A DNA stretch of 64,000 nt from an uncultured Chloroflexia bacterium (GTDB lineage: Bacteria; Chloroflexota; Limnocylindria; Limnocylindrales; CSP1-4): NCBI GenBank assembly GCA_963760625.1, contig CAVXDU010000015.1, positions 17,707 to 81,706 of the forward strand, in the 5' to 3' direction. This document shows, piece by piece, positions 11,224 to 32,402 of this stretch. Below the pieces are notes generated by a model, which worked only from the letters and a program-made list of their open reading frames with translations, did no database searches and had not been told where the DNA came from. Position 1 is the stretch's first letter; each line of letters begins with the position of its first letter. Both the position numbers and the translations under genes were made by a program.

Positions 11224-14200
11224 GTGCCTGATCCCGTCGCCAGCAATGACTTCACCCACCTCCACGTCCACTCGGAGTTCAGCCTCCTCGACGGTCTCGG
11301 TCGCATCGATGACCTGACCGATCGGAGGCGGTCCGTCTGGGCTTCGATTCGCTGGCCATCACGGACCACGGCGCGCTGTACGGCGCGGTCGCCTTCTACC
11401 AGGCGTGCCAGCGAAGGGGCATCAAGCCCATCATCGGCGTGGAGACATACGTCGCGCGCCGGTCGATGACCGACCGGGAGGGCAGCAAGGACTCCCAGCC
11501 CTACCACCTCATCCTGCTGGCGAAGGACTGGACGGGCTACCAGAACCTCTGCCGCATCGTCACCGATGCCCATATCGATGGCTACTACTACAAGCCGCGC
11601 ATCGACCGGGACTATCCTCGCCCAGCACAGCGCCGGGCTCATCGGGCTGTCGGCATGCCTCAACGGCGAGGTCGCACGGGCGCTCGAGATCGGACGATTG
11701 GGAGTCGGCGCGAAGCGGATCGCCGGGTCCTACGCGGACATCCTGGGCCCCGACGACTTCTTCCTGGAGCTCCAGGACCACAAGATCCCCGAGCAGCGCC
11801 GGCTGAACGAGAAGCTGCTGCGCCTGGGACCCGAGATGGGCCTGCCGCTGGTCGCCACCAACGACCTCCACTACGTCCACCGGGAGCAGCGCGAGGCTCA
11901 CGACGCGTTGCTGTGCATCGGCACCGGGTCGATGGTCGAGCAGACCAACCGGATGCGCTTCGAGACGGACGACTTCTATCTCAAGTCGGCGGCCCAGATG
12001 GCGGCGCTGTTCCCGGACCATCCGGAGGCGATCACGCAACACGAGACGTATCGCCGACATGGTGGACATGCAGTTCGACTTCGAGCACGCTCCGACTGCC
12101 GGACTTCCCGGTGCCCGACGGACACACCGTCGAGAGCTGGCTCCGCGAGGAGTGCCAGCGAGGCCTGCACGAGCGCTACGGCACGGTCACCGACGAGCTC
12201 CAGGGGCGGCTCGACTACGAGCTGGGGATCATCATCCAGATGGGCTACGCGGGCTACTTCCTGATCGTGGCCGACTTCGTGCGGTTCGCCCGCGACCAGC
12301 GCATCGCGACCACCTGCCGAGGCAGCGCTCCCGGGTCGATCGTGACCTACACCCTGGGCATCACCCCCGTCGATCCCATCCACTACCAGCTGCCGTTCGA
12401 GCGGTTCCTCAACCCCGACCGGGTGACGATGCCCGATATCGACGTGGACTTCGAGGACAGCCGCCGCGACGAGGTCATCGCCTACGTCACCCGCAAGTAC
12501 GGCTCCGACCACGTGGCCCAGATCATCACCTTCGGCACCATGCTGGCGCGCGCCGCCATCCGGGACGTGGGGCGCGTGCTGGGCATGGGCTACGGCGAGG
12601 TCGACCGCATCGCCAAGGCGGTGCCCAACCAGCTGGGCATCAAGCTGGAGGAGGCGCTCCAGACCGAGCCGCTCGCAGGAGATGTACGCCAGCGACGCCA
12701 CGCGTCCACAAGCTGCTGGACCTGGCGCAGCAGGTGGAGGGCGTCGCGCGCAACGCGTCGACGCACGCGGCGGGCGTGGTCATCAGCCGGGAGCCGCTGA
12801 CGGAGCTGATGCCGCTCCAGAAGGCGACCAACTCCGACTCGCTCATGACCCAGTACGAGATGCACGGCGTGGAGGCGCTGGGCCTGCTCAAGTTCGACTT
12901 CCTGGGCCTGTCCAACCTGACCATCCTGCGCCAGGCGGTCGACCTCATCGCCCAGGAGCGGGGCGGCGAGCCCATCGACATCGACCGCATCCCGCTCGAC
13001 GACAGCAAGACGTTCGAGCTGCTGTCGTCGGGCGAGACGACGGGCGTGTTCCAGCTGGAGTCCGCGGGCATGCGCCGCTACATCCGGGAGCTGCGGCCGA
13101 CCTCCGTGTACGACCTCGCGGCGATGGTGGCGCTGTTCCGGCCGGGGCCCATGGACAACATCCCGGCCTACATCCGGCGCAAGCACGGCCAGGAGGCCGG
13201 TGACCTACCTCCACCCGCTGCTGGAGCCGTTCATGGAGAAGACCTACGGCATCTTCGTGTACCAGGAGGACATCATGGCCGCCGCCATCGCGCTGGGCGG
13301 CTTCACGGGTCCCGAGGCGGACACCCTGGGCTACGCCATCCGCAAGAAGAAGTCGGACGTGCTGCGGGCCCAGAAGGGCAAGTTCGTGTCCCAGGCCGCG
13401 GAGCGGGGCGTCGACCCCGGCGTCATCGACGCGGTGTTCAAGGCGTTCGAGCCCTTCGAGCGCTACGGCTTCAACAAGGCCCACGCCACCTGCTACGGGC
13501 TCATCGCGTACCAGACCGCGTATCTCAAGGCGAACTATCCGGTCGAGTACATGGCCAGCGTGCTCACCGCCTTCCGGGACAACACCGAACGGGTGGCCGG
13601 CGCGGTCGCCGAGTGCCGCCGCATGGGCATCGCGGTGCTGCCGCCGGACGTCCACAGGAGCGGCCTCCACTTCACGGTCGAGGGGCAGGCCATCCGGTTC
13701 GGGCTGCTGGCCGTCAAGAACGTGGGCCAGGGCGCCATCGAGTCGATCGTCGCGGCGCGCGAGGCGGGCGGCCACTTCCGGTCGCTGGCCGACCTGTGCG
13801 CCCGGGTCGACCTGCGCCTCGTCAACAAGCGGGTGCTGGAGTCGCTGGCCAAGGTCGGCGCGTTCTCGGCGTTCGGCCATCGCGGCCCAGGTGCTGCTCG
13901 GCCTCGACGACGCCATCGCCTACGGCCAGGCGGAGCAGCGCGACCGGGTCTCCGGGCCAGGGGTCGCTGTTCGACGACCTGGGCGACGACGGTGGCACGC
14001 CTGGAGCGGCCGCTCGGTCCGGCGACGGAGGCGCCGTCGCGGGAGCGGTCGCGCTGGGAGAAGGAGCTGCTGGGCCTGTACCTGTCGGACCACCCGCTGG
14101 GCGACCTGGCGACGGAGATGGGCCGGTACGTCAACGCCTGGTCGTCGGACATGACCGAGGAGCTGGACCAGCAGCGGATCGTGCTGGGCGGCGTCATCAC

Positions 14201-15442
14201 GGGCCTGCGGCGGGTCATCACCAAGAGCAAGTCGACGATGGGCGTGGCCACCCTCGAGGATCTCCAGGGCTCGACCGAGGTCGTCATCTTCCCCAAGACC
14301 TTCGAGGAGACCGCGGGCGTCTGGACCGACGACGCGGTCCTGCTGGTCGCCGGGCGGGTCGACCACAAGGGCGACGAGACGGTGCTGCTGGCCGATTCGG
14401 TCTGGACCTGGGAGCAGGTGCAGGCGCTCGGCCCGGACGGCTTCGGGCCCGCTGGTCGCGGCCGGGGAGCGCGGGCGCCGGGGCGGTCGACCGGGTGGCG
14501 ACCGCAACGGGTTCCCGGGGTCGGTCGGTGGCTTCCGAAATGGGAATGGCAACGGGTACCGCGGCGGCGGCCAGGATGATGGTGCCGATGGCGTGCCGGG
14601 GCGCGAGCCCGTGGCAGGCCGCGAGGGCGTGCCGAGTCACGAGGCAGTGGCAGGCCGCGAGGCAGTGGCAGGCCGCGAGGCAGTGGCAGGCCGCGAGCGT
14701 AGGCGGAGTGGCAGGCCGCGAGGCAGTGGCAGGCCGCGAGGCCGTCGTGCTGCCGGTCCGGGCGCAGCCGGTCGCGGTCCCGGTCGAGCCGCTGGTGCGG
14801 ACCGTCCCTCTCGTGTCGCCCTTGCGTGGGGGCGCCGTGACAGGCTCCATCGACGTCGTGGTTCGGTCCGGGCATGTCGTGGCGCCGGAACGTGCGGCGG
14901 CCTCGTCAGGCCAGCCGCAGCCGCCCACGTCGAGCCGGCCGCAGCCGCCCACGTCGAGCCGGCCGCAGCCGCCCGACCCTGGGCAGCGGTCTCCCGTGCC
15001 CAGGCCGCAACCGCCGGCACTGGGGCAGCGGCCTCCCGTTCCCAGGCCGCAACCGCCCGAACCCATCGGCGAGTTGCCGGGCCCCCCTTCGCTCGCGGGG
15101 TTGGCACCCGATGGTGGCGACGAACCACCATGGCCGGAAGAGGCCCGTGCGGTGGCGATGGCGGAGATAGCGGCGATCACGCCCCAGGTGTCGGCCAGTC
15201 CGGGTCAGGTACTGCACGTCCGGTTTGGTCATGCGCCCCAGGACCGCGTGGTTGACGCGTTCGGGACGCTCCGTGAGGTGTTCGCGGAGCATCCAGGTGA
15301 GACCGGCGTGGTGCTGCACGTGCCTGCCGGAGGTGGCCGCGACCAGGAGATGCAGCTGCGCGCCGGTGTCGCCTACGACGCCGGATTGCTGGCCGACGTC
15401 CACCGAAGACTCGGCTCGCTCGCGGACCTGCGACTCACCTGA
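11224..15442 (+). CDS. dnaE: DNA polymerase III alpha subunit (at least 9 frameshifts; long low-complexity insertion before the C-terminal domain)
   Basis: PHP N-terminus FTHLHVHSEFSLLDG. Later segments: GYFLIVADFVRFA, MPDIDVDF, STHAAGVVIS, GLLKFDFLGLSNL, FRPGPM, GIFVYQEDIM, FNKAHATCYGL, and the OB-fold region MGVATLEDLQGSTEVVIFP. These lie in ORFs 11224.., 11439.., 11566.., 12059.. and 13200... The terminal ...LADLRLT ends at 15442. Confidence 0.95.
14611..15060 (+). repeat. Composite tandem-repeat tract inside the dnaE 3' region (18-bp, 24-bp and about 45-bp units)
   Basis: gtggcaggccgcgaggca occurs about 7 times (14611-14743). gccgcagccgcccacgtcgagccg occurs about 2.5 times (14914-14975). 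A repeated gggcagcgg.ctcccgt.cccaggccgcaaccgcc follows (about 14980-15060). In the long ORF this reads RQWQAA.../PQPPTSSR... Confidence 0.85.
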
Positions 15443-15552
15443 TCGCGGACGGGCGACTCACCTGACCGCGGACCGACCGATGACCACGTGCCGATGGCCT
15501 GCAAACTGCCAACTGATATGTAGCATCGCGTCGCTCCCGGTCGGGCCGGTCT

Positions 15553-15745
15553 GTTCTGGACACATATGCATGCCCGGGTTCTTCGGCACGACGCGGGGTT
15601 CGTCGCGCCCGCGGAAGCGGCCGGATCTTGTCACGCATGCCCTGGGAGACTGGCTGGCATGAAACGGCGCCATCGGGGAGGGCGCAGGGGCAGGTTACCG
15701 CGTCAGGTGCTGCCCAATATCCCGCCCATGACTAACTGACCGAAC
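15553..15745 (+). repeat. Mosaic inverted-repeat element, type 1, copy A (193 bp)
   Basis: Left arm GTTCTGGACACATATGCATGCCCGGGTTCTTCGGCA, central block GGATCTTGTCACGCATGCCCTGGGAGACTG, right arm TGCCCAATATCCCGCCCATGACTAACTGACCGAAC (an imperfect inverse of the left arm). Related copies at 23001 and 33699. Sits between the convergent ends of dnaE and the TIM-barrel gene. Confidence 0.85.
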
Positions 15746-15777
15746 GAGCAGGCCGGGCAGCGCGCCAGCCGCGCCCG

Positions 15778-16711
15778 TCAGACGGTCAGTAGCGGTGTCA
15801 TGAAAGCGGCCGCCTCCTCGACCCCTTCCAGGGCGGCTGCGTGACGTCCTCGTTCTCGATGGACAGGACGTCGTCGTAGCCGACGACTCGGAGCGCATCG
15901 CACGAACGCCGCCCAGAACGCGCGGTCGTGGCCGCGCCCGATGGTCCGGAACATCCAGGCGCGTGCGCGGGATCGTCGAAGGACCGCTGGTCGAGCACAC
16001 CCGCCAGCGCGACCTGCTCGGGGACCAGCTGCGTGTCCTTGAGGTGGACGTGGTGCACGGCCGGTCCGAGGGCCGGATGACCGCGAGGGGGTCCATCTGC
16101 TGCCAGAACATGTGCGACGGGTCGACGTTGGCGCCGATGACCGGGCCGACGGCCTCACGCATCCGCAGCAGCGTGGGCACGTTGTACACGAGGTGGAGCG
16201 GGTGGAGCTCGAAGGCGATGCGCCGACACCCGTGGTCCACGCGCGAACGCGGCCATCTCGACCCAGAACGGGATGGCTACCTCCCACTGGCGATCAGCAG
16301 GGCGATGGTGTCGGCGGCCACGGGTACCAGACCCAGTTGATGGTGGTGGCATCGGGGCCATCGCCCGGGCAGCCCGGACATCGTCACGATCTTGTCGACA
16401 CCGAGCAAGCCGGCGAGCCGGATGGCGTCACGGATCAACGCCGGCGTGCTGCTCGCCCACGACCGGGATGGAGCGGCCAGGCGGAGCAGTTGAGGGCGGC
16501 GATGCGCAGGCCCCGCGCCGTCGAAGGCCGCCTGGAAGCGATGCCGTGCGCATCGGCGTCCTCGAGCAGCGTCGCGAGGCGCATGTGCGGCGCTGGGGAC
16601 TGCCCGCCCGGCGGCGATCTCGATGCCGGGCGCGCCGATGCGCGCGGCGAGGTCGAGCGCCGCCTCGAACGACAGGCTGCTCGACGGAGTCGGTGTACAG
16701 GCCAGGTCCAC
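15778..16711 (-). CDS. Sugar phosphate isomerase/epimerase (xylose isomerase-like TIM barrel; frameshifted)
   Basis: GTG start at 16711 preceded by AAGGAGG. Fragments SLSFEAALDLAARIGAPGIEI, AFELHPLHLVYNVPTLLRMREAVGPVIGANVDPSHMFWQQMDP, HHVHLKDT, GYDDVLSIENED and LEGVEEAAAFMTPLLTV lie across ORFs 16277..16984, 15695..16240, 15798..16058 and 15778..16287. Confidence 0.75.
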
Positions 16712-16736
16712 GGATCCCTCCTTCGCGTTGGATGGT

Positions 16737-17920
16737 TCAGGTGAGCCCGAACAACCCGACGGCGCCGGACGGGGCTCCAGCGTCGGCAGGTCGAAGTCGC
16801 GCCAGCCCGGCGACGCCCTCGAGGGCCACCGGATGATCGGGCGGGCAGCGGCAGGCCGACGCTCTCGCCGATAGCCGCGGAAGGTAGACCGCGAGCGTCG
16901 CCTCGAGGATGTGGAGACCCTGCTCACCGGGGGCGATGGGGTCGCGACCCGCGGCCACGGCGTCGGCGAAGTCGAGCACGGCACTCGTCGGATGCCGAGG
17001 CCGTGGGTAGGTCGCGCTCGACGCGCGTGTCCGCTCGCGGCCGTGGACCTCCAGGCGCTCGAACGGGCGCGAACGCGCCCGGAGCCCCCGTCCTGGTAGG
17101 TGACCTCGATGCGGCCTCTCGGACCCGCTCACCGCGAACCCGCCTGGGCCCATTGCCCCAGCCCACATTCACCAGAGCCGCGGCGCCCTGCGGTCTCGAA
17201 CCGGGCAAGGGCGATGTCCTCGACCGGCGCACTCCAGCTCGCGGCATGTGACCCAGCCGGAGACGCGCTCGATGGATGCGCCGAGCAAGGCCTCGGCGAG
17301 GTACACGATGTGGAGCATGTCCATGAGCACGCCGCCGCCGGCTGACCCGAGGGTCGTGGCGCCAGCGAGGCGGGTAGGCGGCGGCCCCTGGGTGGTCATC
17401 GCAGCCCAGCCAGTCCAGGAACGCGACCTCGACCGGGCCGATCTCGCCGCGCCCGATGAGCTCCAGCGTCCGCACGCACCTCAGCGAAGAACAGGTAGTT
17501 GTGCACGATGCCGAAGCGCGACACCGGCGGCGCGGGCCGCGTGCCACGATCATCAGCCGTCGCGTCGGCCGGCGTCGTGGCGATCGGCTTCTCGGACAGC
17601 AGGTGTCGGCCGGACTCGACCGTAGCGATGGCCAGGTCACGCCGGACGTGCTGGGGCGTGCACAGGTCGACCATGTCCAGGTCATCGCGTGCGAGAAGTG
17701 CGAGTGGGTCGAGATGCGCACGAGTCCCGTCCAGGCCGGCCGCATCGCGGCCCACCTCCAGGCGTTCGGCTATGGAATCCGCGATAGCGACCAGCTCGAA
17801 GCGATCAGGCATCGCCAGATACGCCGGCAGGTGGTGGTTGAGTGCCACGTTGCCACACCCGATGAGCCCGACCCTCAATGGCCGATGCCCGCGACCGACT
17901 GACGTGGCGGTCGCTGCCAT
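16737..17920 (-). CDS. Gfo/Idh/MocA family oxidoreductase (frameshifted)
   Basis: Rossmann N-terminus LRVGLIGCGNVALNHHLPAY, then HLLSEKP, then GGGVLMDMLHIVYLAEALLG. C-terminus in ORF 16737..17168. Confidence 0.75.
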
Positions 17921-18670
17921 CACATGCCGGTGGGCGTTGCCCGGCGTTGGCGCGCGAGACGACCTGGCCCGATGCCGCGTCCCTCGAAGTACAAACGGGT
18001 CCGCGTCGCGATGGGGAGCGGCACGTCCGGTTCGCACGGGTAGATCCTGCTCGACGATCGCGAATAGATCGCGACCGAGCTCGGCGAGTGCGGCGAGGAT
18101 TGGTGGCATGGCCGGAATGCCGAGAGGTGGCTCGCACATCGACCCGAGGCGCACGGCCTGCGCGAAGGACAGACGCATCCGCTGTCACCTGGTCCATGAT
18201 CGCCGGAGCGACCTGCTTCAGATGGACGTAGTGGATACGTTCCGGATACTTGCGAATGATGGCGAGGTTATCGCCACCGCAGTACGAGATGTGACCGGTG
18301 TCCAGGCACAACTGGACGGCGGTCGGGTCGGTGCCCTCGAGGAAGCGCCCCACATGTTCCTGGGTCGCCACGTGGCTGTCGGCGTGCGGATGGAATGCCA
18401 GTATCAGGCCGAACTCGTCGCGGATGATCCGCCCTAGCCTCGAGGTCGCGGACAGGAGTTCGTCCCACTCCGCCACCGTGAGTTCCGCGGGTCCGAGCCA
18501 CGTCCCCGCGTCGTCGATGTCGCGATACATCTGGGGCAGGAAGACAAGGTAACCCGCGCCGACATCCGAGAGCGTCTTGGCCACCCGCCGACCACGCTCC
18601 AGGATGTCATCGACCGCCCCCGGTCTCTGCAGCGCGCCATCCAGGGTGCCGCCCGAGAGCGCCCGACCGC
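17920..18670 (-). pseudogene. IolE-like sugar phosphate isomerase/epimerase, lacking about 60 N-terminal codons (also frameshifted)
   Basis: LSGGTLDGALQRPGAVDDILERGRRVAKTLSDVGAGYLVFLPQMYRD...ILAFHPHADSHVATQE...CLDTGHISYCGGDN...IHYVHLKQV...FAQAVRLGSMCEPPLG...FAIVEQD. No start or N-terminal strand precedes LSGG. The reading frame runs into the opposing gene at about 18660. Confidence 0.6.
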
Positions 18671-19612
18671 GCCCGGCAGCCCTGGCAGCCCGGGCGGTCG
18701 TGGTGTACGACGTGGAACCCGGGCGTGCGCGTGCGTTCGCAGACCAGATTGGCGGTACTGTCGCCAAATCGCCCACGCATGCGTTGGACGCTGCCGATGC
18801 CGTGGTGGTGGCGGCGTCTACCGACGCGCACGCGGACCTGGTGCGGCAGGCGGTCGATCGCGGCCTCCCGGCCTTCTGTGAGAAGCCACTGGCATTCGAC
18901 CTCCCCGAAACCGTGGACCTGGTGGAGCACATCGAGCGCACTGGGGTCCCGGTTCAGGTCGGATTCCAACGTCGCTTCGATCCGGATACCTCGAGGCACA
19001 TCGCCTGCTGGAGTCGGGCGAGCTGGGCACCGTGTACTTGGTGCGTCTGGTCGCCCATGATCACGAGCCGCCGCCGGATGCGTACATCCCCATCTCCGGT
19101 GGACTGTTCCGGGACTCCTCGATCCATGACCTGGACTCGCTCCGCTGGGTGACAGGGATGGAGGTCGAGGAGGTGTATGCGACCGGGTCCGTCCGCGGCT
19201 TCCCGATCTTCGCGCGGTTCGATGATGTGGACACGGGAGCGGCCATCCTGCGCCTGACCGATGGCACACTCGGCATCCTGGGCCAGACACGCCACGACCC
19301 GCGCGGCTACGACATCCGGATGGAGATCGATCGGATCGAGGGACAGCATCGCGGTTGGGTTGACGGCGCGGACCCCGCTGCGATCCGTCGAGGCCAGCGG
19401 CCTCAGCACTGACGGGTCCACCGTGGGCGACATTCCTGACCCGCTTCGAAGACAGCCTACACGGCCGAACTGTATCGCATTCCTCGCGCGTCGCGCGGCG
19501 GGAGGCGCCCAGTCCGTGCACGGCACTGGACGCACTACAGGCCATGCGTATCGCCGTGGCCGCCGGCCGTTCACTCAAGGAGCATCGGCCGGTGCGGATG
19601 ACCGAGATCTAG
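18660..19612 (+). pseudogene. Inositol 2-dehydrogenase-like Gfo/Idh/MocA oxidoreductase lacking its Rossmann N-terminus (frameshifted)
   Basis: Begins at about ...[50 protein letters not shown]. This aligns with residues after about 25 of the paralog at 27480..28521 ([12 protein letters not shown]...). No GxGxxG segment is present upstream. The manually read end ...SLKEHRPVRMTEI stops at TAG 19610-19612. Confidence 0.6.
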
Positions 19613-19733
19613 GGCACGCGCCAAGCCCGAGCGTGCGCGCCGGGAGTCGACGAATGGAGGTGAGGCGAGCGGTATCAGGAAGGGGACGATTCACTGTCCC
19701 AAGCACCGATCGACAACGATTCGAGGAGACGAG

Positions 19734-21053
19734 ATGAAGAACCGTAGATGGGTCATCGTGCCAGCGCTGGCGGCGCTGCTCATGCCAGCAGTTCCGGCGG
19801 CTGCCCAGGACACCACGCTCACGATCGCAGCCGTGCAAGGCGGCGAGGACGCAGGCCTCAAGGCCCTAGCGCCGATGTACGAGGCGGCCAGATCCGGGCG
19901 TCAAGATCGAGATCGTCGAGAACCCGTACGACGACGCTCTACAACAAGCTGATCGCCGGCTTCGGGGCGAGCGACGCGACCTTCGACCTGGTGATGCTGG
20001 ACGACCCCTGGATGCCGCAAGTTCGGGACCATCGGCGCGCTGAGCGACCTGGGCGCGCTGGGCATCACCCAGGACCCGGACATCGCCCAGATCGTGTGGG
20101 ACGTCGGCACGTGGCCGCCGCCTCAGCGGTCCGGTACCGCCGACCGAGGTGGGCAAGCCATCACAGCTCCTGGGCGTGACCATCGTGGGCAACGTCCAGA
20201 TGTTCATGTACCGCTGCGACAAGACCGCCGACGGCACCCGCGTCGTATGACGACGTGCTAACCAACGCGACGGCCCAGAACGCCGCGGACTTCGCGGCTA
20301 CTTCATCCGCGGCAAGGCGACGAACCCGGTGCTCGGCAGACTTCGCTGCCGATCCTCTGGTCGTTCGGCGGCGACGTCTTCGACGAGGATTGGAACGTCG
20401 TGCTTCGACAGCGATGCCTCGAATCGCTGGCAGCCGTGAAGTTCCTGGTGGACAAGCTCAAGCGCTGTGGCCCAGGCGGACTCCAAGGCGAGCTCCGACG
20501 CGTCCGACCGCGACACGCGCCACCGCGATCGGGTCAGGTCTACCAATCGTCCGTGTGGCCCGGCGAGATCGGCGGGGGCGTGCTCGGCGCAGGGCACGAC
20601 GCTCAAGACCCAGGAAGCTCTGCTTCATCCCCATCCCGAAGGGTCCGAGCGGCAAGGGCGTCGGCATGATGGGCAACTGGATGCTCGGCGTGCCGAAGGC
20701 CTCCGAAGAACCAGCAGGCGGCCGCCGACTTCATCAAGTGGATGCTGCAGGCTGACACACAGATGACCTACGCGCAGAACAACGGCATCCCGTCGCGGAC
20801 GAGCGTGCTCAAGGACGCCGACGCTGGCGGCGGCCAACCCGTACTTCCCGGTCCTGCGCCGATGCGCTCCAAGCGCCCTCCGGCACTGGCGGCCGCGCAC
20901 CGACCAGTGGAACGCGGTGGAGAGCGATCCTACGGCACCGAGCTCAACGCGGCGCTCGTCCGGCCAGAAGTCGGCTCGAGGATGCGGCCAAGAAGCGCGT
21001 CAAGCCAGGTCCGGGCGCTCATGGCCGGAGCCGGATACCCCACCAAGCAGTAG
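19734..21053 (+). CDS. ABC sugar transporter substrate-binding protein (family 1 / CUT1; heavily frameshifted)
   Basis: Signal peptide MKNRRWVIVPALAALLMPAVPAAAQ. Fragments KIEIVENPYD..LYNKLIAGFGASDATFDLVMLDDPWMP, FIKWML and the tail ...LMAGAGYPTKQ (ORF 20742..21053). Confidence 0.65.
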
Positions 21054-21078
21054 GCGTGGCGGAGAGGTCAGGAGTTCC

Positions 21079-22035
21079 GTGACGGCACAGCGCCTATCGC
21101 TGATCAGTCGGCGGTGGAGCGTTGACCTCCACACGCAAGCGTGCGGACCAACTGGTCCGCACGCAGCCGGCAGGAGCGCCTCGGACTGAAGTCTGCTCCT
21201 GCCGGTCCTTCGTCACGGTCGTCGTCATCGCGACCATCCCCTTCATCCTTGCGGTTATCCGCGCGCTGACCGCCGACGATGGGCAGCTTCATCGGGCTTC
21301 GGCAACTTCGAGCGCGCCATCACCAACCCACTCCTGCTCGGACTCCGCTCAAGCAGACGGCGATCTACGCGGCGATCGTGCTGCCAACGGAGATCATCGC
21401 TCGGGCTCGGGCTCGCGGTCCTCGTCCACCGGACCGATGCCAAGGTCGCGCCTCGGTCAGTGCCGCCGTGTACCTAGCGGCCATCATCCCCATCGTGATC
21501 CCCCAGGTGGTCGTTGGCGGTCGTGTTCCGCCTCGTGTATCGGCCCCGACTACGGCGTCATCAACGCGGTGCTCGGGCTCCAGGGGCCACGACCAGATCC
21601 TGTGGTTGTCGCAACCTACCCTCGCGATGCTCTCCGTCGCCAGCGCCGACATCTGGCAGTGGACGCCATTCGTCTATCTAGTCATGTTCGCCGGCTCTGC
21701 AAACCGTGCCCACAGAATTGGTCGAGGCTGCACAGGTGGACGGCGCCGATGCCTGGGCGCAATTCCGGCGCATCGAGATGCCGTACCTGCGCCCGTTGCT
21801 GCTACTGGTGATCTTCTTCCGCATCGCCGATGTGCTGCGGGTTTCGATCACGTGTACATCCTGACCGGCGGTGGGCCGGGCGCCACGACCCAGTTTCTCA
21901 GCCTGTACATGTACCGGATCGCCTTCCCGTTCTCCGATCTGGGGCAGGCCTCCGCGCTGGCCGTGATCGTCATGGCGGCGATGACCGTGTTCTACACGGT
22001 GGTCAGCCGCTTCCTGCCCGCGGATTCGAAACTGA
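21079..22035 (+). CDS. ABC sugar transporter permease 1 (CUT1; frameshifted)
   Basis: GTG 21079 follows GGAGAGG. Fragments TIPFILAVIRALT, LSVASADIWQWTPFVYLVMFAG, VDGADAWAQFRRIEMPYLRPLL and ILTGGGPGATTQFLSLYMY. A TGA at 22033-22035 overlaps the next start. Confidence 0.7.
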
Positions 22036-22867
22036 TGCGGCACAGGCTCGCGCGCATCGTCACCGTCCTCATCCTGGTCGTGGCGCTCATCGCATTCATA
22101 TTCCCGTTGTACTACCTGATCATCACGTCACTGAAGACGAAAGCGGAGCTGTATTCCGTCGTTCCCACGTTGATCCGCGTGATCCGACGTTCCAGGCGTA
22201 CTACGAGGTCCTCGTCGACCGCAAGATGGCCGGCACTGCTCGTGAACAGTGCCATCGCCTGCATGTCCGCGACGATCCTGGGTCTGATCGTGGCGCTCCT
22301 GCTCTGTTATCCCATCACGCGGCTGCCGGTATCGCGGCGTATCCGCGGTTTCGTGCTCGATTGGTCTCTGTCCCTGCGGTTCCTGGCGCCGATCGCTGTG
22401 GTCATCCCGTACTTCCTGATCGTCCGGTCGGTGGGTCTCTACAACCAGTTGTCCGCCCTAGTCCTGGTCTACGCCATCTTCAATCTCCCGCTCTCCATCT
22501 GGATGCTCAAAGGCTTCCTGGAGGAGATCCCGATGGAGATCGAGGAGGCCGCTTTCGTCGACGGAGCGAGCCGCCTGCGCGCGTTCTGGACCATCCTGCT
22601 GCCACTGGCTCGACCCGGCATCCTGGCAGCAGGGATCGTCGTCTTTGCCTTCGATTGGGCCGAGTTCCTGTTCGCCTTCATCCTGACGGCGACACCCAAG
22701 GCGATGACGTTCCCGGTCGGCGTGCAGAGTCTGGTCACGCAGTTCGAGATCATCTGGAACGAGATGGCGGCGGGTGGGTATTGATCGTGTTGCCGCTGGC
22801 GTTGCTGTTCGTCGCTCGGCGCCACGTGATCACGGGCCTGACGTTCGGCGTGATTCGCGACAAGTAG
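22035..22867 (+). CDS. ABC sugar transporter permease 2 (CUT1; frameshifted)
   Basis: MRHRLARIVTVLILVVALIAFIFPLYYLIITSLKT, the EAA-loop region EIEEAAFVDGASRLRAFWTILLPLARPG, and the tail ...GLTFGVIRDK (ORF 21830..22867). Confidence 0.75.
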
Positions 22868-23000
22868 GCTTCTCCGCTCCCTTGGTGTCCGCGTCCACCG
22901 ACGACCTGGCTCGCTCGCAGACCTGCAACCGGTCCGAGCCGTGACGCTGCCAGCGTGCTGGTCGACCAGGGCGGGGCCCGTCACAGCGGGAGCAGAGCGC

Positions 23001-23167
23001 GTTCTGGACACATATGCATGCCCGGGTTCTTCGGCACGGCGGGTTGTCGTCGCGCCCGCGGAAGGCGTCAGGTCTTGTCACGCATGCACGGGAGACTGGC
23101 GGCGATCGGCGCCATCGACGGGCGCAAGCCAGGCGCCGGTTCGGTGACGCGCCCAATATCCCGCGCC
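23001..23167 (+). repeat. Mosaic inverted-repeat element, type 1, copy B (3' arm truncated)
   Basis: GTTCTGGACACATATGCATGCCCGGGTTCTTCGGCA ... GGTCTTGTCACGCATGCACGGGAGACTG ... GCGCCCAATATCCCGC. After CCCGC the sequence no longer matches copies A and C and runs into a 12-bp tandem array. Confidence 0.8.
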
Positions 23168-23257
23168 CGACGGCAGCCCCGACCGCGCCCCGACGGCGCC
23201 CCACGGCGCCCCGACAGCGCCCCGACAGCGCCCCGACAGCGCCCCGACCGCGCCCTG
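23162..23257 (+). repeat. 12-bp tandem repeat, about 8 units (gcgccccgacag-like)
   Basis: cgcgcccgacgg cagccccgaccg cgccccgacggc gccccacggcgc cccgacagcgcc (x3) gaccgcgccctg. Intergenic, between the permease and lacI ends. Confidence 0.85.
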
Positions 23258-23263
23258 CACGCA

Positions 23264-24387
23264 TCACGTGTGATGGACGACTGGCGCGGTGTTCGTTGTC
23301 GCACGTATCACAAGGTGGACCGGCAAGCGGATCGTCTCGAACGGCGGAGCAGGTGCGGCAGCGCCCGATCCGGCCAGCGATCCCAGCAATCGGTCCACGC
23401 CCCAGCTTCCGAGCGCGACGATGTCCTGCGCCACGGTGGTCAGGACAGGCTCCGCGAACCCGGCGAGGTCGATGTCATCGAAGCCGACGACGCTCACATC
23501 GTCTGGGCACGGTGCGGCCGCCGGCCCGGATGGCTCGCAGTGCGCCGAACGCCACGACGTCGTTGTAGCACAGGATCCCGGTCACATCCGGATGCCGCAG
23601 GAGCAGGGGCTCGGTCGCCGATGCGCCGCTCGCCACGTTGCTGTCGCAGCGCTCGATGGCCAGGCGTCGCGCCCCCGAGCGGCGCCGATGGCGGAGCGCC
23701 TGTCGCACGCCCGCCAGGCGCTCGGCCGCCGCCGGGTCGTCGAGCGAGACAGTGACCATGGCCCAGGCGCCGATGGCCGAGGGCCAGGAGGTGCTCCGCG
23801 GCGATACGGCCGCCGGCCTGGTTGTCGCTCATCGCTGCGGGCGTGCGTTCCGTCGTGCGTCTCGCTGTTCACGAGCACCGTGCGGCAGGTGAGCGCGACC
23901 CAGCCACTGCGCATGACGACGCCGAAGGCCGCTCGTCGCGACCACTACCCCATCCACGCGTCGGGATGCCAGCAGCTCCAGGAACGCGCCTTCGCGCTCC
24001 GGATCGTTGGCGCCGTTGCCCAGCAGGACCACGTAGCCCCGGTCCCGTGCGCGATCCTCGATGGCTCGCACCAGCTCAGGGAAGAATGGGTTCTGGATGT
24101 CGGTGATGAGCAGGCCAAGGGTGTGGGTCGTGCGCAGCTTGAGGGAGCGGGCCACGCCAGACGGCCGGTAGTCGAGTCTCCGTGCGGCCGATAGCACCCG
24201 CTCCCGGCTGTCGCCGCGCCCCCGGCTCCGGCCCGAGAGGACCCGGCTGACGGTCGCCGTCGAGACTCCTGCGAGAGATGGCCACGTCGGCGATGGTCAC
24301 GGGCGCCCGGCCGTGGGAGGCCGGGCGAGCCGGCTCGCTCATCCCGGGCCGACGGGTCACCGTCCCGTCCTGTCGGACGCGGCTCAT
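23264..24387 (-). CDS. LacI family transcriptional regulator (frameshifted; alternative start 24342)
   Basis: HTH VTIADVA..., then [47 protein letters not shown], then the C-terminus [26 protein letters not shown] 24387 overlaps a TGATGA that would end the upstream ATPase in another frame. Confidence 0.8.
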
Positions 24388-25272
24388 CAGCTCGTCGAGC
24401 TCGCGTGCCAGCTCCTGGAGCTCCTCGCCGCCACCCATGAGCCGCAGCAGCTCGTCCTGGCCTACCTCGCCCCGTCGGAACTCACCCGCCAGGCGCCCGT
24501 GGGACAGGATGGTGAACCGGTCACCGACCGGCAGCGCGTGCTGCACGTTGTGGGTGATGAAGATGACTGCCAGGCCGCGGGACCGGGCACGGATGACGTG
24601 GCGCAGCACGATGGCCGCTTCCTTGACGCCCAGCGCCGAGGTGGGCTCGTCGAGGATGAGCACCCGCGCACCGAAGTACTCGGCGCGGGCGATGGCCAGC
24701 GTCTGTCGCTCGCCACCCGAGAGCGTGCCCACCAGCTGGCCCGGGTCGCGGATGGCGATGCCGATCTCGGCCATCTGGGCCATCGCGATGCGGCCCGCCT
24801 CGCTGACATCGAATCTGCTGGAACGGGCCCCAACCCCTGGTCGGTTCCGAGCCCACGAAGAAGTTGCGGCTGACGCTCATGAGCGGCAGCACGGCCAGGT
24901 CCTGGTAGACGGTCGCGATGCCCCGGTCGAGGGCGTCACGGGGTGACGAGAACCGGACCGGCGCGCCGTCGATGAGCATCTCGCCCCGGTCGGGCTGGTA
25001 GACCCCAGACAGCATCTTGATGAGCGTGGACTTGCCTGCGCCGTTGTCGCCCAGGAGGCAGTTGACCTCGCCCGACCGGACGGACAGGGAGACCTTGTCG
25101 AGCGCGATGACGCGGCCGAAGTCCTTGGACACCTCGCGTGCCTCGAGCACGGGCACGGCAGTCGGACACGGGCTGGGCACCCTGGTTGCCGTACGCGGCG
25201 ATCTTCGCGGCCGTGTCCTGCGGGCAGGGTGATGGGTGCGTCGTCGTGGGCGGAGAAGGGCGGCTGGTCCAT
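24387..25272 (-). CDS. Sugar ABC transporter ATP-binding protein, single-domain FrcA-like (frameshifted)
   Basis: [79 protein letters not shown]. In the current frame it reads through into lacI without a stop. Confidence 0.8.
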
Positions 25273-26323
25273 CAGCGGGTCCCCGAAGCGCGGCGCAGGA
25301 CATAGGTGTTGACGAGGACCGCCGCCAGCAGCAGCAGCCCCAGGACGGCCTGGTACCAGTCGGTATTGATGCCCGCGTACAGGATGCCCAGGGCCGTGGC
25401 ATGCCCAGGATCAGGGCGCCGAAGGCGGAGCCGATGACGGAGCCGTAGCCGCCGGTGAGCAGCGTGCCGCCCGACGACGGCGGTGATGATGGCCTGGAAC
25501 TCCTTGCCGGTGCCGTCGTTGACGTTGGCGCTGCCCACCTGCGGGCACCACGATGCAGGAGTAGAGGGCGGCCGCAGCGGCCGTGGTCATGAACAGGATG
25601 ATCTTGACGCGCGACACCGGCACGCCCACGTAGCGTGACGCCTGGGCCGACCCACCGACCGCGAAGATCCAGTTGCCGAAGCGCGTCCGGAGCAGGACCC
25701 ACGAGGCGACGACGACGACGGCGAGCCACCACAGCAGCTCGACCCGGAAGACCGCCCGGTCGATGGTGAACAGGGGTGCCGAGAACAGGCGCAGCGCGGG
25801 GCTGTCGGCCGCCCCGGCAGGCAGCCGCACGATCGTCTGGTTGGTGATCTCGCGGGTCATGGCGATGGTCACGCCGCGCAGGATCGAGCATCGAGGCCAG
25901 CGTGATGAGGAATGAGGGCAGCCGTGTCCGGACGACGAGCCAGCCATTGATGGCGCCGAGGATGAGCGCCAGCGCGAACGTGAGCACCACGGCGACGCGC
26001 GGGGTCCAGCCTGGTACTGGCGTGATCATGAGGGCCAGGAAGATGCTGGTGATGCCGATCATGGAGCCCAGCGACAGGTCGAACTCGCCGGCGATCATGA
26101 GCAGCGCCACCGGTGCGCCCAGGATGCCCACCTGGGCCGCGATCTGGAGCCAGCCGGCGACGCCGATGGGACCCAGGAAGCCGTTCTTGCCGGCCAGGAT
26201 GGCGAAGATGATGAAGACCAGGACAGCGCCGATGAGCGCTCCGATCTCGGGCCTGGCGAACAGGCGTCGAAGCGGCCCCTCGGAGCGGAGACGACTGGGT
26301 GCGGCGCCCGTGGCGTGAGTCAT
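25272..26323 (-). CDS. Sugar ABC transporter permease (CUT2, RbsC/AraH-like; frameshifted)
   Basis: The N-terminal 140 aa of ORF 24521..26323 are polytopic ([19 protein letters not shown]...[15 protein letters not shown]). The C-terminus [23 protein letters not shown]...[15 protein letters not shown] ends at 25272, overlapping the ATPase ATG. Confidence 0.75.
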
Positions 26324-26391
26324 CGTCGGCGGTCCTCCATGGCGGACGAGGCCGGTCGCGACTCGACGACCGGCCTCGGGTCACTCGACCT

Positions 26392-27378
26392 CTAGCGGGT
26401 GGTACCCGCGTTGGCGATGACCAGGTCGACGTTGTCCTTGGTGACGAAGCCGGGACCCGTGTAGATCGGGGCGCCGCCGCCGGGGAGCAGGCCGTACAGG
26501 TTGTAGTAGGTCAGGATCTCGATCGGCAGGTAGCCCTGGAGGAACTGCTGCTGATCGATGGCGAAGTCGACGGTGCCGGCCTTGATACCGGCGAGCATGT
26601 CCGGGCGACAGGTCGAAGGTGGCGATGTGGATCTTGCCGGTCAATGCCCAGCTGGTCGACCGCCTTCAGGGCCGGGGCGGCGCCGGTCGGGCCGAGGGCC
26701 ATGACGGCGTCGATGGTCGTGTCGGCCTGGAGGGCGGCCACGATCTTGCTCGCGGCACCGGTCTGGTCGTTCAGGTCGACCTGGACGACGGTGGACTTGG
26801 CACCCGTGCCGAGGCCTTCGGCGAAGCCTTCGCAGCGGGCATCGAGGGCGGCGTTGCCGACCTCCTGGTTGATGCAGAGGGCGTTCTTGACGCCTGCGGC
26901 GGCCATCTTCTCGCCGGCGCCCTTGCCGGCCGGGAACTCGTCCTGGCCGACGTGGGTCAGGATGCCCAGGCTCTTGTACACGTCAGAGCCGGAGTTGGCG
27001 GAGATGACCGGGATGCCCGCATCGACGGCGCTCTTGATGGCGGGCCCGAGCGCCGTGGCATCCGGGATCGAGACCACCAGGCCCTGTGGGGTTCTTGCCC
27101 ACGGCCGCGGTGATGAGCTGGGCCATCGCGTTGATGTCGAACGTCGTCCCGCGGGCGCGGAGTAGTTGACCGTGACGCCGTGCGGTGCCATGTCCTTGGC
27201 GGCCTGGTTGACGCCGTTGACGAAGATCGACCAGAACGGGTCGGACGCCTGGCCGTGGGTCACGACCTCGATGGGGATGGGGCGCCGGCTCCTGCGCCGA
27301 GGCCATGCCCGGGGCGAGTGCCGCGCCGACCAGCAGGCCGGTGCCCAGGGTCAGGCTGACTGCCTTGCGAACCTTCAT
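26392..27378 (-). CDS. Sugar ABC transporter periplasmic binding protein (CUT2; frameshifted)
   Basis: Signal [55 protein letters not shown] and [30 protein letters not shown] are typical of ribose/inositol-type binding proteins. Confidence 0.8.
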
Positions 27379-27479
27379 GTGCGTGATGCTCCTCCTCGCG
27401 CGACGGCGAGGCCGTCGGCGTGTGTCGTGGGCCCGGCCACAAGCCGGCCTCAGGCGATCGACTGTTCGCTGGCGACCTA

Positions 27480-28521
27480 CCTCCTTCTGCTGTGCGCCCT
27501 GCTGTGCCGTGTCCCGGACCGGCAGGCCGGCGATCTCGCTGAGGGCCACTGGTCGGTGCTCATGCATCGACCTGGTGGCGGCCTCCGCGACGCGCAACGA
27601 CTCGACCCCGTCACGGGCCGTGCACGGGAGATGGCGCCTCGCCGCGTGCGACCGCGAGGAACGCGATCAGCTCGGCGCGGTAGGCACCCGGGAAGCGGGC
27701 GAAGAAGTCCGGCCAGGCGGGACCGGCGGGCGGTGGCACGCCGGGCTCCACCGACCGCATCGGCGTGTGCGGGCCGAGACCCACGCTGATGCTGTCCCGC
27801 GATCCGAACAGCTCCGCCCGGATGTCGTAGCCGAGTGGATCGTGGCGGGCGCTGGTGAGCACGGCCAGCGTGCCGTCCTCCATGCGCAGCGTGGCCACGC
27901 CGGTGTCCACGTCGCCGTACTTGGCGAAGACAGGGAAGCCCCGGACGCCGCCGTCGCGTAGACCTCGGCGACCTCGGAGCCCAGCAGCCAGCGGATGACA
28001 TCGAAGTCGTGGACCGAGAAGTCCCGGAACAGCCCACCCGACGCCGGGATGTACGACTCATGGGGCGGGGCCGGATCGTGGCCGGCCAGCCGGACCACGT
28101 AGACCGTGCCCAGCTCGCCGCTCTCCACCATCCGGCGCGCCTCGCGGTAGCCCGCGTCGAATCGGCGCTGGAAGCCGAGCTGGAATGGCACGCCGGACGC
28201 CTCGATCAGCTGCGCGACCGCGATGGTCTCGTCGAGCGTCCCCGCCAGGGGCTTCTCGCAGTAGGTCGGGATGCGACGGGCGATGGCCGCCCGGACCAGG
28301 TCGGCGTGGGCGTCCGTGGCCGCCGCGATGACGATGGCATCGGCGGTATCCATGAGCGCCTCGACCGACGGGAACGCACGGGCGCCGACCTGCGGCCGCC
28401 ACGGCGGCCGCTCGCTCCGTGTCGCGTCGGCGATCAGCAGCTCGTCGACACCCTCGAGCCCGGCGAGCAGTCGGGCATGCATGGCACCGATCCGTCCCGC
28501 ACCGATCAGACCGATCCTCAT
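27480..28521 (-). CDS. iolG: Inositol 2-dehydrogenase-like Gfo/Idh/MocA oxidoreductase (frameshifted; 3' end uncertain within about 27450-27540)
   Basis: [79 protein letters not shown]. Divergent from iolD. Confidence 0.7.
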
Positions 28522-28681
28522 CCGCTGGCATCTCCCCGACGGCATCGGGCATGTCACCGAACCGCGACCGATCCCGGTCCGCGACGTGCAATGTGTAATC
28601 GATTGCGTATCATTGGCGCGTCGGGGGAGCCTGTCAACCCGGTTGCCTGCGGATGTGCCATCGACCGAAGGAGGCGATCTC

Positions 28682-30588
28682 ATGGGCGGTACTCGCCGAC
28701 TGACGACCGCGCAGGCCGTGGTGGCGTTCCTTCGCCAGCAGCACGTCGAGCGCGACGGCGAGCGGGCGCGGTTCATCGCTGGGGTGTTCGGCATCTTCGG
28801 GCACGGCAACGTGGCCGGGCTGGGTGAGGCGCTGGAGGCGGAGGCCGCCGCGCACGGCCAGGACGCGCTGCGCTACCACCAGGCGCGCAACGAGCAGGGG
28901 ATGGTCCACATCGCAGTCGGCCTACGCCAAGCAGCTGCGACGGCTGCGCGCGTTCGCCTGCACCAGCTCCATCGGTCCCGGCGCCACCAACATGGTCACG
29001 GGCGCCGCGACGGCGACGCGTGAACCGGCTGCCGGTGCTGCTGCTGCCGGGTGACCTCTTCGGCACCCGTCGGGTGACCCCGGTGCTCCAGCAGCTGGAG
29101 CGGCCGGAGAGCCAGGACGTGAGCGTCAACGACGCGTTCCGGCCCGTGTCGCGCTACTGGGACCGCATCGACCGGCCGGAGCAGCTGGTGACCGCGCTGC
29201 CCGCCGCGTTCCGGGTGCTCACCTCGCCCGTCCGAGACGGGTGCGGTCACGCTCTGCCTGCCCCAGGACGTCCAGGCGGAGGCGTGGGACTTCCCCGAGG
29301 AGCTGTTCGAGGAACGCACCTGGGTCGTGCCCCGACCGAGGCCGGACGTGACGCTGCTGGCCCGGGCCGCGGACGCCATCGCGGCCGCCCGCCGACCGAT
29401 GATCGTGGCCGGCGGCGGTGTGCTGCTACTCCGCCGCGGAGGCGGCGCTCGACGCCTTCGCGACCCGCTTCGGCATCCCGGTCACCGAGACCCAGGCCGG
29501 CAAGGGTGCGCTCGCCTGGGACCACCCGCTCCAGATGGGGCCCGTGGGCGCGACCGGCGGCTCCGCCGGCAACGCGGTCGCGCGGACCGCCGACCTGGTC
29601 ATCGCCATCGGGACGCGCCTGTCCGATTTCCCGACCGCGTCGTGGACGGCCTGGCAGGACCCCGACGTCGCGGTTCGTGGCCATCAACGTCGCGGAGCTG
29701 GACGCCGCCAAGGCGCGCGCCGATCCCGCTGGTCGCCGACGCCCGGGCGTGCCTCGAGGAGCTGACGGCGGCGCTCGACGCCCGCGGCTACGCCGGGGTC
29801 GAGCACCGAGCGGCGGGCCGCCAACGAGCGCGCTGCGCGCCGACTGGAACGCGGAGGTCGACCGGGTCCGCGCACTGTCCAGCGCCGCAGCACACCTCGC
29901 AGCCGGAGGCGATCCGGCTGGTCAACGAGGCGGCCGGCAGGGACGGCATCGTGGTGTGCGCCGCCGGCGGCCTGCCGGGTGACCTGCACAAGCTGTGGCG
30001 GACCTCGCGACCGGGCGGCTATCACCTGGAGTACGGCTACTCCACGATGGGCTACGAGGTCGCCGGCGGCATCGGCGTCGCGATGGCGGAGCCCGACCGG
30101 CGGGTGTACGTGATGGTCGGTGACGGCTCCTGGCTGATGCTGTCCGCGGAGATCGCGACCGCCGTCCAGGAGGGCATCGGGCTCACCGTCGTGCTCCTCG
30201 ACAACCACGGCTTCCGGTGCATCCGCAACCTGTCGAGCGCGTGCGGCGGCGAGGGCACGTTCCAGGACTTCCGGTTCCGCGATCCGGCCACCGGGCAGCT
30301 GACGGGCGATGTCCTGCCCATCGACTTCGCGGCCAACGCCGCGAGCCTGGGCGCGCACGTCCTGACCGCCCACGATCCGGCGGAGCTGGCCAGCGCGCTG
30401 GAGGCCAGCAAGGCGATCACGGACCGACCGGTCGTCATCGTGACCGAGGTCGACCCGTCCGTCGGCGTGCCCGGCTACGACAGCTGGTGGGACGTGCCGG
30501 TCGCGGAGGTCTCGGACAACCCGCTGGTCCGCCAGGCCTACGCGGACTACCGTGGCGCACCTCGCCACTGGAGCGCAACCTGCCATGA
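28682..30588 (+). CDS. iolD: 3D-(3,5/4)-trihydroxycyclohexane-1,2-dione acylhydrolase (TPP enzyme, IolD; frameshifted)
   Basis: [48 protein letters not shown], later [24 protein letters not shown]...[10 protein letters not shown]...[12 protein letters not shown] and [11 protein letters not shown] stop at 30586-30588 overlaps the next ATG in the sequence ATGA. Confidence 0.85.
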
Positions 30589-31551
30589 CGGTGGCACGGC
30601 GTCGGAGCGCCATGTCATGACCGCCCGCGCTGCCCATCGCGAGCGCGCCCTGCTCCTTCGGGGTGGACGAGGTGGTCACCGACGACGCCTGGATGCCGGG
30701 TCCCGACGAGATGCTGGACTGGATGCTGGGCATCGGCTATGCGGGCACGGAGCTCGGGCCACCCGGCTACCTGGGCGCCGGGACGCGCGGCACGTGAGCG
30801 ACTGGACCGGCGCGGCCTGCAGCTCGTCGGTGCGTTCCTGCCCGGTCACTTCAGCCGCGCCGACCGCGCGCCCGCGGACCGTGACTGGCTGCGCGACCAG
30901 CTGCCGCTCCTGCGCGACGGCGACGCCCGAGGGATCGACGCCGTTCGCGGTCCTGTGCGAGGCGATCGACGAGCCGGACCGACTGCGCTACTCCGGACGC
31001 ATCGACCTGCACCCCGAGGCCCAGCTCGACGAGGTCGCGCGTGCGCACGCTGCTGGACAACCTCCATCGGGCAGGGGAGCTGTGCCAGGAGCTGGGGTTC
31101 CGGGCGGTCGATCCACCCCCACGCCGGCACCTACATCGAGACCGACGCGGAGATCGAGCGAGTGGTGGAGGGGCTCGATGCGCTCGCTGGTGGGGCTGTG
31201 CCTCGACAGCGGGCACTTCCGGTATGGCGGGGCCGACCCCGCGCAGCGCGTCCGGGACTACCGCAGCGTCCTCCAGCACGTGCATCTCAAGGACTGCCAC
31301 ACCCAGGTCCTGCGCGATGTCCGCCGCGATGACCAGGGCCTGGCGGAGGCCCTGGCGCGCGGTGTGTTCACGGAGCTGGGCACCGGCGACTCGGGCATCG
31401 ATCGCGGTGGTCGCGGCGCTCCGCGGAGGTCGGCTACGACGGCTGGGTGGTCGTGGAGCAGGACCGGAAGCTGGACGAGCGCGTGACGCGCCACGAGCTG
31501 GTCGCCTCCCAGCGCCGCAACCTCGCCTATCTGCGCACCCTGGGCCTGTGA
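30585..31551 (+). CDS. iolE: Inosose dehydratase-like sugar phosphate isomerase/epimerase (TIM barrel; frameshifted)
   Basis: Manual read: PIASAPCSFGVDEVV...MLDWMLGIGYAGTELGPPGYLG, then GLCLDSGHFRYGGADP..DYRSVLQHVHLKDC and GYDGWVVVEQD. Ends at TGA 31549-31551. Confidence 0.65.
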
Positions 31552-32402
31552 TGCGACGGCCTGACCCGACCAGCGATCCCTGCTGCGGCGCGCCACGCGC
31601 GCCCGACGCCCGCGACGGCGCCACCCAGCGCCTGACACCGGCGGATGCAGGCTGGGAGTGGATCAGCTTCAGCTGCCCACCGGCTGGATGCGGGCCAGGC
31701 CGTGGAGCGACCGGGTGACGGCCAGGAGGTCGCCGTCGTCGTCCTCGAGGGATCGGCCGACGTCGCGCGCGGGTTCCCGTCGGTTCGGGTCGGTCGGCAG
31801 CCGGGTCGAGCGTGTTCGACGGACCACCGCCGCCGGTCGTGCTGGTCGCCGCCGGGCGAGCCGGTCACGGTCCGCACGGACGCGGCCGCGACCGTGCTCA
31901 TCGCGAGCGCCCGCATCGGGCGACCCGGTGCCGACCCGCCTCATCGACCCCGCCACGATGCGGGTGGAGGACCGGGGCAGCGGCCAGACCGCGCGCCGGG
32001 TCCATCACCTGCTGCCGCCCGATGCAGCCGCCTCGCGGCTCATCCTGGTGGAGGTGTTCACGCCCGGTGGCAACTGGTCCAGCTATCCGCCCCACAAGCA
32101 CGACACGGAGGACCAGCCGCGGGAGTCGCTGCTGGAGGAGCTGTACTACTACCGGTTCGCGCGGCCGCAGGGCTTCGCGTTCGCGCGGGTCTACACCGCC
32201 GACCGGAGCCTGGACCAGGCGCTCACGCCCATGGATGGCGACGTGGTGCTGGTGCCCACGGGGGTTCCATCCGGTGGGCATGCCGGCCGGATACGATGGC
32301 TACTACCTGAACGTGATGGCCGGTCCCACCCGGCTCTGGAACTTCACCCTCGACCCGGACCACGCCTGGCTGATGGACTGGTCTCCCGCTGCGTCACGCT
32401 GA
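31551..32402 (+). CDS. iolB: 5-deoxy-glucuronate isomerase (IolB; frameshifted)
   Basis: GWEWISFS..RLDAGQAVERPGDGQEVAVVVLEG, then LILVEVFTPGGNWSSYPPHKHD...EELYYYRF..PQGFAF.RVYT, then the tail ...HAWLMDWSPAASR. Confidence 0.8.

Follow-up and report, generated by a model that had tools for sequence, protein, structure and literature searches.

The 64,000-nucleotide stretch of DNA analysed here (the window; 69.5% GC), from an uncultured Chloroflexia bacterium, contains a family of related intergenic sequences of 167-206 bp, and the question that they raise is whether they are small mobile elements, host repeats, recombination sites or the genes of a structured RNA. The initial annotation had described five such elements in the same orientation and had offered two readings, namely a MITE/BIME-like element and a structured RNA. 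All five were recovered on the plus strand, and their coordinates held overall, with refined ends at 59788 for D and 60853 for E:

15553-15745, plus strand: element A (subfamily 1), delimited by conserved blocks, self-BLAST and inverted-repeat score; left arm GTTCTGGACACATATGCATGCCCGGGTTCTTCGGCA at 15553-15588, central block GGATCTTGTCACGCATGCC at approximately 15622-15642, right arm starting with GCCCAATATCCCG (15712) and ending with GAAC (15745)
23001-23167, plus strand: element B (subfamily 1), with the distal right arm absent and an 11-nt tandem array (23166-23255) abutting it
33699-33890, plus strand: element C (subfamily 1), flanked by a KduI/transaldolase-family ORF (plus strand, end at 33547) and a DUF1269 gene (minus strand, stop at 34038)
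59584-59788, plus strand: element D (subfamily 2), between fpg/nei (plus strand) and vapC (minus strand)
60648-60853, plus strand: element E (subfamily 2), approximately 120 nt upstream of vapB (minus strand)

Self-BLAST of the window divided the copies into two subfamilies, A/B/C and D/E, with identities of 80% over 193 nt between A and C, 80% over 176 nt between A and B and 85% over 206 nt between D and E. The homology between copies ends abruptly at the element edges, and the limits of the D/E homology are exactly GATC...GATT. Two blocks, GGGTTCTTCGGCA and GCCSAATATCCCG, have five exact matches each in the window, one per element. With up to two mismatches, 11 matches to GGGTTCTTCGGCA were found against 1.2 expected, and a 23-nt arm pattern gave five matches against none expected. 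These invariant blocks are not explained by chance. Members of a subfamily are locally clustered (A, B and C within 18 kb, D and E within 1.3 kb), and the spacings between successive elements are 7.3, 10.5, 25.7 and 0.9 kb. Profiles of five and seven copies were searched using nhmmer in the window (five-copy profile) and in approximately 190 kb of related loci; no sixth copy was found in the 64-kb window with the five-copy profile.

Homologues of VapC, a protein encoded next to the elements, were used to reach short metagenome contigs (designated L with a number) carrying related copies:

L009, 1194-1341: copy L009c
L010, approximately 893-1098: copy L010c, full-length
L018: copy L018c, left-truncated
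L026, 1958-2167: copy L026c; L027: partial copy L027c

Relatives were found only on these few contigs and only beside orthologous vapBC loci. No copies were detected in approximately 100 kb of the contigs L004, L007, L008, L025 and L020; the dnaE genes of the first four have 80-93% DNA identity to that of the window. The distribution is thus patchy, as for mobile DNA. An exact two-block pattern search gave three matches in GTDB representative genomes, two in JGI metagenomes and seven in viral contigs (two patterns). Alignment or profile scoring showed that these matches were confined to the pattern itself, and they were rejected as chance. A BLASTN search of the PLSDB plasmids with A and D gave no matches. 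The family is most likely restricted to one group of uncultured Chloroflexota.

In a full copy of approximately 190-205 bp, the left arm (approximately 36-44 nt) and the inverted right arm enclose two variable segments, which are separated by a semi-conserved central block. The elements start with G(T/A)TC. The formula GATC(C)TTG.CA, which had been proposed for the central block, holds only loosely, with GGTC... in B and GATA... in E. It had also been proposed that the right arm is an inverse of the left one, and this was borne out for A, C, D and E: their inverted-repeat scores of 14, 15, 20 and 16, respectively, lie above all 500 shuffles, the shuffle maxima being 12-14 (12 for A). The same does not hold for B, which lacks the distal right arm. 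The arms of D are approximately 44 nt long and 73% complementary. The perfect terminal pair GATCATGCA/TGCATGATC that had been attributed to both D and E is present in D only, and E reads GATTATGCA on the left. Three copies (B, L009c and L010c) have truncated or degenerate inverted repeats.

The arms also reveal a mosaic build. The sequence ATGCATGCCCGGG(TTC/ATA)TTCGGCA forms the left arm of A-C and is the reverse complement of the right arm of D and E, and the distal left arm of D and E resembles the central block of A-C. In L026c, a left arm of the D/E type is combined with a right-hand arm of the A-C type; its arms are symmetric, both having the ATATT form. Copies have exchanged arms and modules. 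Because L026c carries ATATT on both arms, the left/right asymmetry (TTCTTC vs. ATATT), which had suggested strand-specific function, is not an invariant of the family. A resemblance of the central block to a third, direct copy of the arm was weak: only D showed it at a significant level (5 of 500 shuffles).

As an alternative, the true element could be only the inner portion (GGGTTCTTCGGCA...AATATCCC), placed within a palindromic REP-like target. This candidate was rejected, since no solo arm-type palindromes were found in the window and the homology between copies includes the outer arms. The inner block may resemble ISL3-type ends (GGCTCTTCG...).

No conserved reading frame was found in the elements: from D to E, the ORFs across the element shift frame, and those across A-C meet stop codons. 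A pseudo-protein search with the minus-strand ORF across E found no protein relatives.

Orthologous sites were then compared between the window and the related contigs. All contigs compared at the junction of fpg and vapC encode VapC proteins of one 90% cluster. This junction comprises 10 bp (tcgcgccacc) in L009, L010, L018 and L019 and 305 bp, including D, in the window, while in L026 and L027 the site is occupied by a divergent copy (L026c and L027c, respectively). Insertion polymorphism, which had been proposed as a check of mobility, was therefore observed at this junction, with three occupied sites and four relatives with the short form. The site upstream of vapB, where E is located, shows another pattern: a full copy is present in the window and in L010, the left arm is deleted in L018, and only a right-arm-like remnant is left in L009 and L019. 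What is missing at the E site was lost by deletion and does not mark an empty target site, and such erosion upstream of vapB is as expected for unconstrained DNA. The site of L009c is empty in the window; the indel there comprises approximately 600 bp and is not clean. In relatives, the absences at the sites of A, B and C fall in rearranged DNA. The 85% identity between D and E is higher than the identity of either to the L010 copy at the E position, which argues for recent spread or conversion within the genome.

No consistent target-site duplication was seen at the ends of the elements. The 5' flanks vary among the copies (tct, cgc, tcg, gca and cgg). TCG is a candidate duplication at D and C, as is GCGG at E, and A has no candidate; the element ends are uncertain by a few nucleotides. 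Approximately 50 ORFs of the window were compared with Pfam and turned out to be housekeeping, sugar-catabolic or toxin-antitoxin genes; neither a transposase or integrase domain in general nor a Y1 transposase was found among them.

The elements are best described as a lineage-restricted, non-coding, MITE-like repeat with terminal inverted repeats, and we assign to this reading a probability of approximately 0.6. Points against it are the inconsistent target-site duplications, the uniform orientation and the fact that neither a transposase nor an integrase was found among the approximately 50 ORFs compared. The elements are non-coding and shorter than approximately 500 bp, they possess terminal inverted repeats and occur as dispersed copies with sharp edges, and insertion polymorphism was found at the fpg/vapC junction, the losses at the E site being deletions. 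The MITE/BIME-like alternative of the initial annotation is thus supported by discrete units, significant inverted repeats, mosaic arms, the lack of a reading frame, and polymorphism together with decay by deletion. The family is most likely undescribed but of a familiar kind (MITE). On balance, it is probable that the elements were mobilised in trans by a transposase, or that each unit at any rate spread as a whole, with erosion following. A transposase encoded elsewhere in the genome would bind the arms and would carry the element into intergenic DNA near gene 3' ends. Inserted copies could persist there as neutral or mildly useful DNA, and the persisting copies might act as substrates or markers of local rearrangement.

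Among known systems, the Correia/NEMIS elements of Neisseria are MITEs of approximately 100-200 bp that are non-coding, have terminal inverted repeats of 25-45 nt and are located in intergenic regions near gene ends. They are present or absent depending on the strain, have internal deletion variants, duplicate a TA target and occur in hundreds of near-identical copies. As these elements are generally described, the family studied here resembles them in size, non-coding nature, terminal inverted repeats, position near gene ends, presence/absence and deletion variants. In contrast to Correia elements, no consistent duplication was seen, the copies are diverged by 15-40% and frequently truncated, they have one orientation, and the host belongs to the Chloroflexota.

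The genomic setting of the copies is relevant to a second explanation. The initial annotation had placed four copies between convergent genes and the fifth upstream of vapB. The latter position was confirmed for E. A convergent setting was established for C (a plus-strand TAL-family gene and the minus-strand DUF1269 gene), for D (fpg on the plus strand and vapC on the minus strand) and, by orthology with L004, for B; at A, the minus-strand gene downstream is only an unannotated ORF. Such positions between convergent gene ends are also consistent with a host repeat similar to REP/BIME or ERIC, which would have no transposase, would be spread or homogenised by recombination, segmental duplication and gene conversion, and would be kept between genes as a protein-binding or transcript-end element. 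The modular, mosaic build of the family, the uniform orientation, the local clustering of the subfamilies and the outcome of the searches for a target-site duplication and for a transposase (in approximately 50 window ORFs) fit this explanation. We nevertheless consider both the origin and the retained function that it proposes unlikely: decay by deletion at orthologous sites implies weak constraint, approximately 100 kb of close relatives contain no copies, and consensus scans found no promoter or terminator within the elements, so that a promoter or terminator function is not supported.

ERIC/IRU elements of enterobacteria are imperfect palindromes of approximately 127 bp, and BOX elements of Streptococcus pneumoniae are boxA-boxB-boxC mosaics; both are located in transcribed intergenic regions, have size variants that arose from internal insertion or deletion and are thought to fold as RNA. 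To our knowledge, no dedicated transposase is associated with either of them. Judged by these descriptions, the family shares with ERIC and BOX an imperfectly palindromic or modular mosaic intergenic build but has no sequence similarity to them and no conserved fold. In the high-GC genome of Deinococcus radiodurans, the small non-coding repeats (SNRs) are intergenic and mosaic, measure 60-215 bp and have inverted termini; we know of no transposase identified for them. The present elements are like SNRs in their mosaic intergenic build and inverted termini; this likeness is one of description, and the host phyla are unrelated. With BIMEs and with REP elements that have RAYT transposases, the family shares a mosaic of conserved motifs between convergent genes. 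REP units are palindromes of 20-40 bp with GTAG or CGTC heads (PMC3733652). The unit found here is different, being approximately 200 bp long with 40-nt arms, and neither solo arm palindromes in the window nor a Y1 transposase among the tested ORFs accompanies it.

In addition to the elements themselves, the ends of neighbouring genes were found to be duplicated:

15386-15434, plus strand: 3' coding end of dnaE (...VHRRLGSLADL...), of which a second copy lies upstream of B
22882-22929, plus strand: dnaE 3'-end remnant, 72 nt upstream of B; 84% identity over 49 nt by self-BLAST
60905-61009, plus strand: fpg 3'-end remnant of approximately 100 nt, 52 nt downstream of E; matches 59417-59463 and the 3' end of fpg in L010

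The dnaE remnant near B indicates that the A/B pair arose with segmental duplication or recombination and not by transposition of the element alone. The D/E pair likewise has a duplicated gene 3' end on either side. D and E bracket the vapBC cassette. In the outgroup contigs L020-L024, this cassette and fpg are arranged head to head, with vapBC on the opposite flank of fpg, which points to an earlier duplication or translocation of either of the two. From the duplicated gene ends and the position of vapBC in the outgroups, it follows that segmental duplication and recombination contributed to the present arrangement, at least for A and B. Some copies of A/B and D/E therefore spread by this route and not by clean transposition, which counts against the MITE-like reading, and the duplication of flanking gene ends along with the copies speaks for the host-repeat explanation. 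The stop codon of dnaE is located within a 23-nt tandem repeat of 2.4 copies (15420-15475).

Then, the gene order around the elements was compared. In the window, the layout is dnaE, A, a 7.3-kb segment with sugar genes, B, the iol cluster, C and DUF1269. Relative to L004, the region 15405-23295, comprising A, the 7.3-kb segment and B, is extra in the window. In L007 and L025, DUF1269 directly follows dnaE, and in the window it lies beyond C. These comparisons place A, B and C at all three synteny breakpoints. L004, L007 and L025, none of which carries the element, each have their own arrangement or set of DUF1269, the iol/sugar cluster and an Asn-synthase-like gene. In comparison with these three contigs, the part of the window that follows dnaE (15405-34056) is a rearrangement hot spot. 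Since the element-free contigs are rearranged too, the hot spot is independent of the elements.

The association with breakpoints raises the question of whether the elements mark the borders of movable gene modules as sites of recombination, in the manner of tandem att sites, plasmid dif modules or integron attC sites, with a site-specific recombinase acting on the arms and shuffling the segments between them. The location of A, B and C exactly at the three breakpoints, the bracketing of the vapBC cassette by D and E, the arrangement of all copies as direct repeats and the duplication of gene 3' ends near the boundaries, as at attL/attR, would be in line with this. We regard such a role as very unlikely, given that the window ORFs compared with Pfam included neither a recombinase nor an integrase, that the region after dnaE is rearranged in L004, L007 and L025 as well, that vapBC of L009 and L010 adjoins fpg with no element on the fpg side, and that the copies are 15-40% diverged and often truncated. 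Integron attC sites are regularly spaced after cassette ORFs near intI and have the R''/R' core GTTRRRY. The elements differ from an attC array in their irregular spacing, in that no integrase was found, and in the start G(T/A)TC and the end GAAC (of A), which do not have attC polarity.

The uniform orientation was evaluated separately. All elements of the window are on the plus strand, and A, B, C, D and the related copy L009c share the direction of the gene that precedes them. The uniformity rests on approximately six independent sites, which corresponds roughly to p = 0.03, and the same orientation at all six is not predicted by random insertion. The GC skew of the window is too flat to tie this orientation to the direction of replication. 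PATEs, which are derived from IS200/IS605, are small non-coding elements with a strong orientation bias along the replichore; they have subterminal hairpins instead of terminal inverted repeats and insert 3' of a fixed target of 4-5 nt. The present family is likewise small, non-coding and biased in orientation, but its inverted repeats are significant and its 5' flanks differ between copies. It is improbable, in our estimate, that co-orientation, breakpoint positions and the bracketing of vapBC together reflect an orientation-dependent assembly or shuffling of modules at putative recombinase sites, or a replication-coupled, strand-specific transposition. If the elements did prove to be active and orientation-dependent in this way, they would represent a new type of module-boundary element in Chloroflexota; no new mechanism is implied unless the orientation lock and the association with breakpoints prove causal.

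Orientation could also reflect transcription, with the elements acting as a structured RNA, either a cis-acting 3'-UTR element or a small RNA from the plus strand. The agreement with the orientation of the upstream gene would fit this, and RNAalifold analysis of the five window copies gave 16 pairs with changes on both sides, which exceeds the shuffle controls. In addition, the helix GGCA:TGYC uses G-U pairs on the plus strand only. The structure predicted from the five copies has only 79.8% of cells paired, although it was derived from the same sequences, and the copies form only two clades. When eight copies were used, the consensus fold was reduced to 13 pairs and -3.99 kcal/mol. Element A folds no better than its shuffles (z = +1.2 on the plus and -0.3 on the minus strand). 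The z-scores of D, -2.3 and -2.9, are similar on both strands and are accounted for by its inverted arms. Mismatches between the arms are of the transversion type (A.A, C.C, T.T) and are not wobble pairs, and whole halves of the element are deleted in orthologous copies. A search of Rfam 15 at gathering thresholds returned only a tRNA-Leu (CAA; 50397-50482, minus strand) in the window, which was the sole RNA gene found, and nothing within the elements even at E values up to 10; the Rfam check that had been suggested at the outset was accordingly negative. Taken together, these results make the RNA explanation highly improbable.

The initial annotation had also noted that the variable segments can form their own GC hairpins. 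Compared with dinucleotide shuffles, these segments have z values of approximately 0 to +1 in A, B and C and mildly negative values in D and L009c. The hairpins were rejected as a conserved feature, since they show no excess stability over shuffles; they are a chance product of a sequence with 70% GC.

Catalogues of small mobile repeats are poor for uncultured high-GC Chloroflexota, and a MITE-like family would add to them one with unusually mosaic arms. The elements could be used as a marker of strain variation, as a flag for assembly or annotation problems in these metagenome-assembled genomes and as a pointer to the rearrangement hot spot downstream of dnaE and to rearrangement around fpg-vapBC.

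With regard to assembly quality, many essential genes of the window are split over two or three frames, for example dnaE (11313-15442) and fpg (58421-59513), and the frame drifts out and back within one ORF. The nearest relatives come from ENA and have names of the form "contig_N"; the gene calls of L004, L007 and L025 are likewise fragmented. The split genes are most likely indel errors of long-read metagenome assemblies and not true pseudogenes. The contig L020 (GCA_019637815.1, labelled as a Chloroflexi bacterium) is syntenic and contains a 20-kb locus with dnaE, DUF1269, a sigma factor, polA, vapBC, fpg and a Phd/PIN pair, which makes a Chloroflexota host most likely.

Several other features were found in the window. 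A second toxin-antitoxin pair (61474-62132), located 0.6 kb from vapBC, consists of a Phd/YefM-like antitoxin and, by synteny, a PIN toxin; the pair is kept in L009, L026 and L020. Between vapB and this pair, a 164-aa gene with no Pfam domain is present in L009 (2676-3170), L010 (394-888) and L018 (165-659) and is missing from the window and L026. Two segments of approximately 1 kb with 75% identity (8-1048 and 1654-2688) form a direct repeat that probably reflects a pair of paralogous genes; the ORF compared with Pfam there gave no domain. An inverted pair with 71% identity (18785-19564 and 27577-28352) corresponds to paralogous oxidoreductase genes of the GFO/IDH/MocA type, one of which is located in the 7.3-kb segment between A and B and the other in the iol cluster. 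Intergenic tandem arrays with periods of 11, 18, 22, 36 and 46 nt were found at 23166-23255, 61219-61364, 34594-34686, 14586-14745 and 63878-64000, and also in L009 at approximately 1480-1680; L026c has terminal duplications of approximately 20 nt at both ends. Several of these arrays abut copies of the element; directly after B, an 11-mer is repeated eight times.
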